The notes under the pieces: model-generated
Seen by the model: the letters and a program-made list of their open reading frames with translations, nothing else
Database searches by the model: none
What the model was told of the DNA's origin: nothing
Assembly: GCA_035249885.1 (NCBI GenBank)
Contig: DATFFV010000103.1
Span: 1 to 34,013, forward strand
Length of the DNA stretch: 34,013 nucleotides
Origin: Gammaproteobacteria bacterium
GTDB lineage: Bacteria; Pseudomonadota; Gammaproteobacteria; Steroidobacterales; Rariloculaceae
Reading direction: 5' to 3'
Translations under genes and position numbers: made by a program
Shown here: positions 30,385-33,226 of the stretch, in pieces
Layout of the letters: each line of letters starts with the position of its first letter
Position numbering within the stretch: position 1 is the stretch's first letter

Positions 30385-30960
30385 TTAGCCGTCCGTGCCG
30401 GTGCCGACCAACATGCCGTCCAAGTAGTTGGCCTTGATGTGCACCCACTCCATCTTGAACCATGGCGTGAACGTCTCGGGCGCGGTTATGAGCTCGCGCT
30501 CGAGCGCCTCGACACCGACGAACCGCCACGCGGCGATCTCAGTCACGTTGGCGTCCACGGGGCCGTCGTAGCGGCCGAAGTATACCGAGCATAGCTCGTG
30601 CTCGGCGCCCACCGTGCCGAACTGTGCATGGTATTTGAACTTGTAGAGATACTCGAGCGGACACGTGAAACCGAGCTCCTGCGTGAGGCGCCGCGCGACC
30701 GCCACGCCGAGCACCTCGCCCCGGCGCGGGTGCGAGCAGCACGTATTCGACCAGAAACCCGGCCAGAGCATCTTGCTCAAGCTGCGCTGCTGGAGCAGGA
30801 GCTCGTTGTCACTGTTGAAGACGAAGATCGAGAACGCGCGATGCAAGACGCCGTATCCCAAGTGGCAATCGGCCTTGGGCTTGAAGCCGATCTCGCGATC
30901 TTGATCGTCGACGAGGATCAGCTGCTCGCTTGCGTTCGAGACGATCTCGTCACGCGCCAT
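30385..30960 (-). CDS. idi: Isopentenyl-diphosphate delta-isomerase, type 1 (Nudix fold)
   Basis: HRAFSIFVFNSDNELLLQQRSLSKMLWPGFWSNTCCSHPRRGE parallels E. coli Idi (LHLAFSSWLFN...[21 protein letters not shown]). The start overlaps the upstream stop by 11 nt. Confidence 0.9.
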   Translation of the reverse strand: MARDEIVSNASEQLILVDDQDREIGFKPKADCHLGYGVLHRAFSIFVFNSDNELLLQQRSLSKMLWPGFWSNTCCSHPRRGEVLGVAVARRLTQELGFTCPLEYLYKFKYHAQFGTVGAEHELCSVYFGRYDGPVDANVTEIAAWRFVGVEALERELITAPETFTPWFKMEWVHIKANYLDGMLVGTGTDG

Positions 30961-33226
30961 TCAAATCCGCTCCGAGTTGCACCGGCATAGCCTGGAAGCC
31001 GGCCGTACGAATCGCGCTCACGACGGGCTCGGTGTCCCCGTCGCAGATGGCGATGATCGAACCGCCGCCCCCTCCGCCCGTGAGCTTGGCACCGAGCGCC
31101 CCGTTTTCGCGGGCGATCGCGCACACTTTTTCGAGCTCGGGCGTCGATACCTGCAGGGCATTCAGCATGCCCTGGCATATGTTCATGAGCTGCCCGAGCG
31201 TTGGCAAGTCATTGTCTTGTACGGCCTGAATGCCGCGCAGCGTCAGGGCATCGATTTGGTCGAAGATGCGCTCATATAACTTATTGTCCTGCTGCCAGGC
31301 CTCGCGCACGCGCCCCACGGTCTTCGCCGTCAGGCCTTCGAGCCCCGTCATGCCGATGACGGCCGGGATCGGCGTGCGGATGTTCAGCGTCTCGACGAGC
31401 GGCGGATCGCCGGTGCGGAACACGAGCGGCTTGCCGTAGCACGCGAGAGTGTTGTCGAGGCCGCTTGGGCTGCCGTGCGCCATCTTCTCCGACTCGAACG
31501 CCAGACGATTGACCTCGGCGTCGGACAGCCGCAAGCGGAAATGCTTGTCGAGCGCACGCACGATCGCGACGGCCATCGCCGCCGAACCGCCGAGCCCCAT
31601 GCTGCGCGGCACCTCGGGGAACACCTCGATGCGCATCGCGCGCTTGCTCAAGCCGAGCTCGTCGAGCACGACGCCGGCGGGCCGCTCGAACGAGCGCCGT
31701 TCGCTCGGATTCGTCGCGAGCCGGTACTCGACGTTCCAGCGCGGAATCAAAAGATGAATGCCCTCGTCGCAATCCTCGACGAGCGCTTTGATCGTGAGCG
31801 GAATCGGCACCGCGATCGCGTGCCGGCCGTAGACCACGGCGTGCTCGCCGAGCAGGATCACTTTGCCATAGCCCACGCCCATCGCGGCTTCCTTGCTGCG
31901 TTTGGGCTTAGGCCCCGCCGCCGCGCGCTTGCGCTCGTCTTGCACTTCCGTGACGAGCTCCTGCGCCTTCCATACTTTGATGACGCCGCTCTGTACGAGC
32001 CGCTCGAGCACCTCGTCGAAGATTTCCTTCGGCGCACCGGCCGCCGTTACGACGCTGCGCGCGTGCAGCGTCATGTGCCCTTTCTGGATGCCCTCGGTGG
32101 CGAGCGCGCGAATCGCCGCGAAGTTCTGCGCGAGGCCGACGGCGGCCATGACCTGCGCGAGCTCGGTCGCCGTGTTGACTCCGAGCAATCGCAGATTGAG
32201 CGCGACGGTAGGGTTCGACTCGATCGGCGCACCGACGATGCCGACCTTGATCGGTACCTCGATGCGGCCGCAGAGGTTGCCCTGCTCGTCCGCCCACCAC
32301 TCGGTCAACGACGAGTAGCGCCCGCCGCGCGCGGCGTAGGCGTGCGCGCCGGCTTCGATCGCGCGCCAATCGTTACCCGTCGCGATCGCGACCGGGTCGA
32401 TGCCGTTCATGATCCCTTTGTTGTGCGTGGCTGCGCGATACGGATCGACGGCCGCGAACTCGGCCGCGACGATGATGCCGTCGCGTGCCTGCACGCCCGT
32501 GTAACCCTTGCCCGCGAGCTGCTCGACGGGAATCTTGCACTGGGCGCGCACGAGCGAACGGTCCGTGAGATTCGAGAGGATGCGTAAGAAAACTTCGCCG
32601 CCCGTGATCGACTCGACGAGCGGCGCCACGCCCTCGCACATGCCGTTGACGAGATTCGCGCCCATCGCGTCGCGCGTGTCGACGAGCAGATGCACGACGA
32701 GCATCTGCTTCGCGCTCGACGGCAACGGATGGACGAACAGCTCGATATCGCGAGCGCCGCCACCGCGCGCGACCATGTTCGGATGCAGGCTGTTGGCGAG
32801 GTTGATGACGTCTTGCTTGCGGTCGCGCAGCGCGCGCTTTGCTTTTTCGATGTCGGGGAGGTTCACGACTTGTATCTGGCCGATGAGGATCGGGTCGGTC
32901 GCCTCGGTCTTGAAGCCGCCGCAGGCGCGGACGAGCTTGCAAGCCGAGCCGAGCGCCGCGACGACCGACGGCTCCTCGACGACCATCGGCACGATGTATT
33001 GCTTGTCGTTGACGACGAGGTTCATGCCGAGCCCGAGCGGCATGCCCATGACGCCGACGACGTTCTCGATCATCTTGTCGGCCGAGTCGAGATCGAGCGT
33101 GTGCTCGCCCGAGGTGAGCGCGCGGAAATCCTCCGTATCGATGAGCCCGCGGTCGTGAACGGCCCGCACGCGCTCCTCGACGCTCAACTTGTAGAACTCG
33201 GGAATACGCATACGGTCGCGACTCAT
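30950..33226 (-). CDS. Bifunctional fusion: class II HMG-CoA reductase (aa ~1-430) + mevalonate kinase (aa ~450-758)
   Basis: N-terminal part: EEPSVVAA, DTRDAMGANLVN, ATHNKGIMNGIDPVAIATGNDWRAIEAGAHAYA, GHMTLHAR (class II HMGR). A basic linker ERKRAAAGPKPKRSKEAA follows. C-terminal part: GYGKVILLGEHAVVYG (GHMP motif I), GLGGSAAMAVA (motif II), KLTGGGGGGS (motif III). The whole is a single uninterrupted frame. Confidence 0.85.
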   Translation of the reverse strand: MSRDRMRIPEFYKLSVEERVRAVHDRGLIDTEDFRALTSGEHTLDLDSADKMIENVVGVMGMPLGLGMNLVVNDKQYIVPMVVEEPSVVAALGSACKLVRACGGFKTEATDPILIGQIQVVNLPDIEKAKRALRDRKQDVINLANSLHPNMVARGGGARDIELFVHPLPSSAKQMLVVHLLVDTRDAMGANLVNGMCEGVAPLVESITGGEVFLRILSNLTDRSLVRAQCKIPVEQLAGKGYTGVQARDGIIVAAEFAAVDPYRAATHNKGIMNGIDPVAIATGNDWRAIEAGAHAYAARGGRYSSLTEWWADEQGNLCGRIEVPIKVGIVGAPIESNPTVALNLRLLGVNTATELAQVMAAVGLAQNFAAIRALATEGIQKGHMTLHARSVVTAAGAPKEIFDEVLERLVQSGVIKVWKAQELVTEVQDERKRAAAGPKPKRSKEAAMGVGYGKVILLGEHAVVYGRHAIAVPIPLTIKALVEDCDEGIHLLIPRWNVEYRLATNPSERRSFERPAGVVLDELGLSKRAMRIEVFPEVPRSMGLGGSAAMAVAIVRALDKHFRLRLSDAEVNRLAFESEKMAHGSPSGLDNTLACYGKPLVFRTGDPPLVETLNIRTPIPAVIGMTGLEGLTAKTVGRVREAWQQDNKLYERIFDQIDALTLRGIQAVQDNDLPTLGQLMNICQGMLNALQVSTPELEKVCAIARENGALGAKLTGGGGGGSIIAICDGDTEPVVSAIRTAGFQAMPVQLGADLNGA

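Follow-up and report, generated by a model that had tools for sequence, protein, structure and literature searches.

The stretch of DNA analysed here (the window: 34,013 nt, contig DATFFV010000103.1, from a soil gammaproteobacterium assigned to the Rariloculaceae) raises the question of whether two enzymes of the mevalonate pathway, 3-hydroxy-3-methylglutaryl-CoA (HMG-CoA) reductase (HMGR) and mevalonate kinase (MVK), are made as a single polypeptide, or whether two neighbouring genes were only joined in the assembly. The gene in question lies at 30950..33226 on the minus strand, and an earlier note on this DNA had described it as one uninterrupted frame of 758 codons. This was borne out: the open reading frame (ORF) begins with ATG, contains zero internal stops and encodes a 758-aa protein in which a class II HMGR is followed by a linker and a mevalonate kinase, as indicated by the ORF itself, by Pfam and NCBIfam matches above their cut-offs and by full-length homologs. 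We consider it highly probable that this protein is a genuine bifunctional, biosynthetic HMGR-MVK enzyme encoded in a translationally coupled operon. Both enzymes are complete, are apparently active and would catalyse consecutive steps within a single chain.

All motifs quoted in the earlier note (EEPSVVAA, DAMGAN, THNKGIMNGID, GHMTLHAR and MGVGYGKVILLGEHAVVYG) were recovered in the translation, and Pfam placed HMG-CoA_red at aa 16-389 (361 bits), GHMP_kinases_N at aa 520-597 and GHMP_kinases_C at aa 667-739 of the 758-aa protein. The class II HMGR domain with its C-terminal flap occupies aa 6-425 (31952..33211, minus strand). Positions 2-368 of the 368 in the PF00368 profile were covered at the 361 bits given above, and the class II HMGR model of NCBIfam, TIGR00532, scored 415 bits over aa 6-389 against a cut-off of 260. 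The closest solved structure is that of Pseudomonas mevalonii HMGR (MvaA, 1QAX), of which residues 5-421 of 428 were aligned with E=3e-120; since the alignment extends to residue 421, the C-terminal flap is included. Residue mapping placed the four conserved catalytic residues of the P. mevalonii enzyme, E83, K267, D283 and H381, at E85, K270, D286 and H384 of the fused protein.

The second half, a GHMP-type mevalonate kinase domain at aa 449-758 (30953..31882, minus strand), in which the complete kinase extends to about aa 745, scored 234 bits with the NCBIfam MVK model TIGR00549 (cut-off 163; aa 454-726; profile positions 3-275 of 276), whereas the models for phosphomevalonate kinase (PMK), galactokinase and homoserine kinase all remained far under their own cut-offs. 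Both halves thus exceed NCBIfam equivalog cut-offs, in agreement with the earlier description of two complete enzymes. The kinase half also matched the solved MVKs of Leishmania major (2hfs, E=3e-41) and Staphylococcus aureus (2x7i, E=1e-35). Like these stand-alone enzymes, it carries the full GHMP signature and an MVK equivalog score, with motif I (GYGKVILLGEH, including K455, E461 and H462), motif II (GLGGSAA, residues 544-550), the catalytic Asp in SGLDNT (D591) and motif III (KLTGGGGGG, residues 714-722); unlike them, it has no free N-terminus, and the strand bearing Lys455 begins about 6 residues past the linker. No MVK-type gene apart from the fused domain was seen in this operon.

If the fusion had been produced by assembly, it would not be expected to recur, and we examined its distribution in three ways. 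In a search among 5.8 billion proteins, more than 120 clusters were recovered at full length (749-762 aa), each with all three Pfam domains; the clusters listed had 80-92% identity and 99-100% coverage and were drawn from JGI, ENA, NCBI and Logan assemblies, with contigs of 5.45, 2.4 and 1.5 Mb among them. A genome scan with one genome per GTDB species gave at least 587 confirmed relatives, and the best 80 of these, which we examined, matched the query from end to end at 61-92% identity. They included the isolates Dyella monticola, D. psychrodurans, D. flava, D. dinghuensis and Wenzhouxiangella sp. EGI_FJ10305, as well as metagenome-assembled genomes (MAGs) labelled Nevskia, Woeseia, Arenicellales, Chromatiales, Sinobacteraceae and Candidatus Rariloculaceae. 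Finally, 1.84 billion cluster representatives (50% identity) were scanned exhaustively with HMMER; about 18 distinct clusters at this level carried the fusion, the most distant of them at 36% identity. A chance origin of the domain matches can be regarded as ruled out, because of E-values of such size and the recurrence of the architecture across hundreds of genomes.

We then re-derived stop-to-stop ORFs in 81 related loci and aligned the resulting proteins (82 fused sequences). A single ORF spanned both halves in 79 of the 81 loci, and the frame across the junction was open in all 81. Over the fused family as a whole, the open junction is retained in lineages with no more than about 36-60% identity. 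The two exceptions had nothing to do with the junction. In locus L053, a single in-frame TAG at about 10328..10330 interrupts the HMGR part at a position occupied by Leu in relatives, and may be a sequencing error or mark a recent pseudogene in this MAG. Locus L027 carries an intact fused copy and, 4 kb away on the opposite strand (3870..6105, minus strand), a degraded second copy with the HMGR part broken over three frames and the MVK part intact, which may be a pseudogene or may have arisen by mis-assembly. At some loci the match extended over about 3.3 kb; a split gene was considered and rejected here, the upstream PMK-like paralog having been picked up in these cases. The possibility that there are really two genes, mvaA and mvk, whose separating stop or frameshift was lost in sequencing or assembly, had been raised in the earlier note as one of two ways in which the finding could fail. 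The kinase domain begins exactly with an ATG that is preceded, 7 nt upstream, by AAGGAA, as would be expected of a former separate start. However, in 81 of 81 loci from independent projects, at 57-95% identity and including isolates and megabase contigs, the junction keeps its frame and has no stop, more than 120 independent protein clusters are full-length, and the length of the linker differs by whole codons only, which leaves an artefact next to no probability. We therefore regard the gene, on the basis of these alignments, as a conserved natural fusion rather than an assembly artefact.

Conservation along the alignment was uneven. The catalytic HMGR residues E85, K270, D286 and H384 were invariant in every sequence that covered them, and K455, E461, H462, the GLGGSAA motif (S548), the Asp of SGxDNT (D591) and the Gly run of KLTGGGGGG were invariant in 82 of 82 sequences. 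Purifying selection has thus kept the catalytic residues of both domains. Mean column conservation reached 0.78 in the reductase core and 0.73 in the kinase core, and fell to 0.32 in the inter-domain linker (aa 426-448, approximately; 31883..31951, minus strand). This Lys/Arg/Pro/Ala-rich segment is the least conserved part of the protein; across the family it is hydrophilic, variable in sequence and 20-35 aa long, a spread of about 15 residues. The part of it that had been noted earlier, aa 430-448, corresponds to nt 31883..31939, and the Met that follows, M449, to the codon 31882..31880, so that the coordinates given in the earlier note were correct. Invariant catalytic residues in conserved cores, separated by a segment of low conservation and variable length, are the signature of two constrained enzymes on a flexible tether.

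The internal ATG at M449 (31880..31882, minus strand), which stands at the start of the kinase domain, deserves separate consideration, since it might be used in addition to the start of the fusion. The codon aligned to M449 was ATG in only 15 of the 82 sequences, all of them from the window's own subclade; elsewhere it was CTC, ACC, GCC, CGC, GAG or another non-start codon. A purine-rich stretch resembling GGA/GAGG, 7-9 nt upstream, was found in the closest relatives only. Given this restricted distribution of both elements, the family as a whole shares no internal start. Within the subclade, the ATG may be a relic of the start codon of the once separate mvk gene, or it may serve optionally as a second site of initiation. 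In the latter case, the full fusion and a free MVK initiated at M449 would be made side by side, with kinase in excess of reductase. The confinement of the ATG to the window's clade and the retention of the purine-rich stretch in its closest relatives despite synonymous variation speak for such dual expression. Against it, most of the family has replaced the Met by non-start codons, the deeper ATG-bearing relatives (L013-L016) are without the purine-rich stretch, and the peptide K/Q/R-E-A-x-M alone can account for the pattern; moreover, nothing in it removes the fusion product. We consider dual expression quite unlikely.

Is the fused protein a biosynthetic enzyme? Its database name, "HMG-CoA reductase, degradative", would suggest otherwise. 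Stand-alone P. mevalonii HMGR is NAD-specific and catabolic, and its gene lies in an operon with HMG-CoA lyase. By analogy, the reductase half could oxidise mevalonate, and the kinase half would then be regulatory or a pseudo-enzyme; the closest solved structure is indeed that of the catabolic enzyme, and the best NCBIfam model bears the title "degradative". We find this very improbable for several reasons, of which gene context comes first. The TGA stop of the upstream gene overlaps the ATG of the fusion as ATGA (33223-33226), and the start of the downstream gene, a type 1 isopentenyl diphosphate (IPP) isomerase of the Nudix type (IDI; 30385..30960, minus strand; NF002995 161 bits and TIGR02150 155 bits, both above cut-off), overlaps the 3' end of the fusion by 11 nt. 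The upstream gene (33223..34011, minus strand), which is cut by the end of the window, encodes a GHMP-family kinase (Pfam GHMP_kinases_N) that is probably PMK, by operon position and by elimination. Its best NCBIfam match was the PMK model TIGR01220, at 58 bits against a cut-off of 166. The presumed PMK is very divergent, and its 333-aa ortholog in the related locus L001 (9003..10004) is without a Pfam match on record. We also considered the reverse assignment of the two kinases: the fused domain as PMK was rejected, as it scores above the MVK equivalog cut-off, and the upstream gene as MVK was rejected, as its score with the PMK model is higher than with the MVK model, though both are under cut-off.

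The same arrangement was recovered in related loci. The gene that immediately follows the fusion is IDI in 79 of 81 (the best IDI match of L027 lies upstream on the opposite strand, and L052 gave no IDI match), a PMK-like gene lies upstream in 51 of 81, and diphosphomevalonate decarboxylase (MVD) and PMK precede the fusion in about 50 of 81. In the window, the next gene after IDI in the same direction encodes HpnH, the adenosyl-hopene transferase (29249..30364, minus strand; TIGR03470, 553 bits), which follows IDI in 33 of the 81 loci. Since the gene sits in a coupled PMK / HMGR-MVK / IDI operon inside a hopanoid (hpn) cluster, the fusion is predicted to be biosynthetic despite its database name. 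An operon with PMK, IDI, MVD, HMG-CoA synthase and squalene/hopanoid genes is not expected for a catabolic enzyme, and HMG-CoA lyase was not seen among the neighbouring genes examined. Furthermore, the catalytic residues of the kinase are all invariant and the score of this half is that of an MVK equivalog, at odds with a pseudo-enzyme. In a 2026 survey of bacterial isoprenoid pathways (PMC13001223, supplement), the carrier genera Woeseia and Wenzhouxiangella are given as mevalonate-only, and Dyella as mixed between species.

The cofactor segment of the reductase points in the same direction. In the window protein it reads SLHPNMVARGGGARD, a close match to QAYPSIVKRGGGARD of the Streptococcus pneumoniae enzyme. 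In contrast, the solved HMGRs of P. mevalonii, Delftia and Burkholderia, which we take to be of the NADH type, have R(K/D)D..L..LGGGC, with the specificity residue Asp146. The segment of the fused protein comprises H148, N150 and R154; His148 and Arg154 are invariant across the fused family and stand where P. mevalonii has Asp146 and Leu152. The replacement of the NAD-specificity residue by an invariant His is a further difference from the catabolic enzyme, in addition to the fused kinase and the biosynthetic operon, and suggests that the fused HMGR accepts NADPH. With operon context and cofactor segment both contradicting it, the label "degradative" is merely the title of the class II model.

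Several points weigh against the reading of the protein as a bifunctional biosynthetic enzyme, or against parts of it. The suggested use of NADPH is drawn from a short alignment and from the cofactor preferences ascribed to the reference enzymes. An AlphaFold2 model computed from an alignment of 21 sequences (80-92% identity) was of low confidence, with a mean predicted local distance difference test score (pLDDT) of 57.6, a predicted template modelling score (pTM) of 0.41 and the lowest pLDDT in the linker, and the arrangement of the domains cannot be read from a predicted model at this mean value; the folds themselves follow from the sequence matches to solved structures. The ATG and the upstream GGA-rich stretch are retained in the window's subclade, where some free MVK could also be made. 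Moreover, many natural fusions give co-expression without channeling of intermediates.

With these points in mind, we propose the following scheme. The N-terminal class II HMGR would reduce HMG-CoA to mevalonate, and the C-terminal MVK, joined to it by the flexible tether of 20-35 residues, would phosphorylate mevalonate with ATP to mevalonate-5-phosphate. The translationally coupled operon, in the order (MVD)-PMK-fusion-IDI, would then supply IPP and dimethylallyl diphosphate (DMAPP) from within the hopanoid/squalene cluster. Loss of the stop codon that once separated neighbouring mvaA and mvk genes is the most plausible origin of the fusion. As to its persistence, we infer benefits from fixed 1:1 co-expression of two consecutive enzymes, from their co-localisation and from a thermodynamic pull: the ATP-driven step beside the reductase would hold free mevalonate low and draw the reversible class II reaction toward synthesis.

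The tether starts at the mobile HMGR flap and ends only about 6 residues before the catalytic Lys455 of the kinase, and therefore the two active sites could be close together. Both parent enzymes are homodimers, and the fusion could accordingly form a closed dimer or a larger assembly. Channeling of mevalonate between the domains is possible, as a pure conjecture. In a more far-reaching version, the tether between flap and catalytic strand would couple the two enzymes functionally, either by direct hand-over of mevalonate or by allosteric cross-talk, so that downstream prenyl diphosphates, in inhibiting the kinase by feedback, would slow the reductase as well. We regard this version as unlikely. 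If it were true, control over the sole route to isoprenoid/hopanoid precursors in a large environmental group of Gammaproteobacteria would lie in this one protein, and the repeated, independent fusions of HMGR with kinases in other phyla would suggest that such fusion is selectively favoured in general.

Among known systems, the fusion most readily invites comparison with MvaE of Enterococcus faecalis (PDB 7m1z, 7m3h), which is likewise a natural bacterial fusion of class II HMGR with another mevalonate-pathway enzyme and has a homologous HMGR core (E=2e-86). In MvaE, however, an acetoacetyl-CoA thiolase is placed N-terminal to HMGR, whereas the protein of the window carries a GHMP mevalonate kinase on the C-terminal flap; the two steps united in MvaE are non-consecutive, with HMG-CoA synthase acting between them, and those united here are consecutive. 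Pfam and NCBIfam found no thiolase domain in the 758-aa protein, whose HMGR begins at residue 6. Because this domain is absent, the fusion is analogous to MvaE and not a member of the MvaE family. The fusion IspDF, likewise natural, bifunctional and widespread, also serves the making of isoprenoid precursors (PMC13001223), but it belongs to the MEP (methylerythritol phosphate) pathway, consists of unrelated folds and joins non-consecutive steps.

Other combinations of the same enzymes were found in the search of representatives. Triple fusions of HMGR, MVK and an IDI-like NUDIX domain were present in MAGs (P0122, 952 aa, Desulfobacterales; P0124, 928 aa, Pseudomonadota), the reversed order MVK-HMGR in P0142 (Myxococcota; TIGR00549 204 bits at the N-terminus), and fusions of a PMK-like GHMP kinase with HMGR, again with the kinase first, in P0151, P0158 (Myxococcales) and P0191. 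These proteins unite enzymes from the same operon neighbourhood as the window fusion and differ from it in the order or number of domains, which indicates independent or stepwise fusion events. In P0122 and P0124, the domain order repeats the gene order of the overlapping fusion/IDI pair of the window, suggesting stepwise fusion along the operon. On the evidence of these architectures, class II HMGR has undergone repeated fusion with neighbouring genes of its operon. P0122 and P0124 are named only "HMG-CoA reductase, degradative", and none of the related fusions has a bifunctional name.

The earlier note had supposed that this architecture is uncharacterised, and that the finding would fail if it were already common and annotated. 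In the full-text literature searched, whose coverage leaves out most subscription journals, a natural HMGR-MVK fusion was not found described or characterised; Hoshino & Gaucher (2018) state only that fused partners were trimmed before phylogeny. The first supposition held in this respect, while the architecture itself proved to be common: it is carried by at least 80 species-level genomes, out of at least 587 relatives, and by about 18 clusters at 50% identity. Annotation is in an intermediate state: the fused proteins are numerous in public databases, where all three Pfam domains are already assigned to them, but the product names of the sampled entries, "HMG-CoA reductase" or "HMG-CoA reductase, degradative", cover the HMGR half only. 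The fusion is therefore real, conserved, under-annotated and apparently uncharacterised, a variant of known bifunctional mevalonate-pathway enzymes such as MvaE.

The naming has practical consequences. Because the sampled entries are named for HMG-CoA reductase only, pathway reconstruction keyed on product names will miss mevalonate kinase and may call the pathway incomplete or catabolic. In Woeseia and Wenzhouxiangella, the genera listed as mevalonate-only, one protein would carry two essential steps, and in many lineages the fusion gene lies together with genes for hopanoid and squalene synthesis. Artificial fusions of enzymes from the mevalonate pathway are in wide use, and a natural, evolutionarily optimised HMGR-MVK scaffold with a defined linker, together with the HMGR-MVK-IDI form, would offer a ready test case for distinguishing channeling from mere co-expression. 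Fusions of neighbouring pathway genes are common; the finding does not overturn current understanding and would not surprise a specialist.

The wider neighbourhood of the fusion is rich in genes of hopanoid synthesis. Beyond HpnH lies the gene for the hopene-associated glycosyltransferase HpnB (27904..29307, minus strand; TIGR03469, 418 bits, above cut-off); the match covers aa 90-463, and the true start is probably internal, near aa 90. An HpnM-like gene is located farther downstream, so that the hopanoid genes of the window occupy 27904..30364 and 24751..25677 (minus strand). A divergent HMG-CoA synthase (HMGS) is encoded at 23272..24735 on the plus strand, with Pfam HMG_CoA_synt_N and HMG_CoA_synt_C above cut-off; it scored 181.6 against 360 on the NCBIfam HMGS model and stayed well under every HMGS equivalog cut-off. 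This enzyme is predicted to supply the substrate of HMGR. The upstream continuation of the cluster could be followed in L001, a relative on the 5.45-Mb contig, where genes for a polyprenyl synthase, a squalene/phytoene synthase, HpnG-like, HpnN-like (MMPL) and HpnA-like proteins, MVD and the PMK-like kinase were found. The mevalonate operon is thus embedded in a hopanoid/squalene cluster, to which the region 1394..9002 of L001 adds farnesyl diphosphate (FPP) synthase, squalene synthase (SQS), HpnG, HpnN and HpnA, and the whole has the appearance of a self-contained gammaproteobacterial "precursor + hopanoid" supercluster. The arrangement differs in a Chromatiales-like group (L018-L037; for example L020, 9977..12807), in which the local genes are the fusion and IDI pair only and PMK, MVD, HMGS and hpn genes were not found within ±10 kb of the fusion; here the remaining pathway is elsewhere in the genome, or different.

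Some further features of the window were noticed. Between the HpnM-like gene and HpnB (25437..27810, minus strand) are genes for AzlD (25437-25760), AzlC (25766-26470) and a 425-aa protein with a signal peptide and a weak TPR match (26533-27810). In L001, HpnB directly abuts the MlaC/HpnM gene, and the Azl segment of the window looks like an insertion into the hpn cluster. A 558-aa ORF at 17624..19300 (minus strand) combines thioredoxin-like 2Fe-2S, Nuo51/FMN and 4Fe-4S domains, which are divided between two genes (154 and 516 aa) in L001; it adjoins genes for a 931-aa molybdopterin formate-dehydrogenase-like subunit, MoeA and FdhD. Unrelated to the fusion, a regulator of the NrtR type with Nudix and winged-helix domains (NUDIX and NrtR_WHD) is encoded at 12734..13492 on the plus strand.

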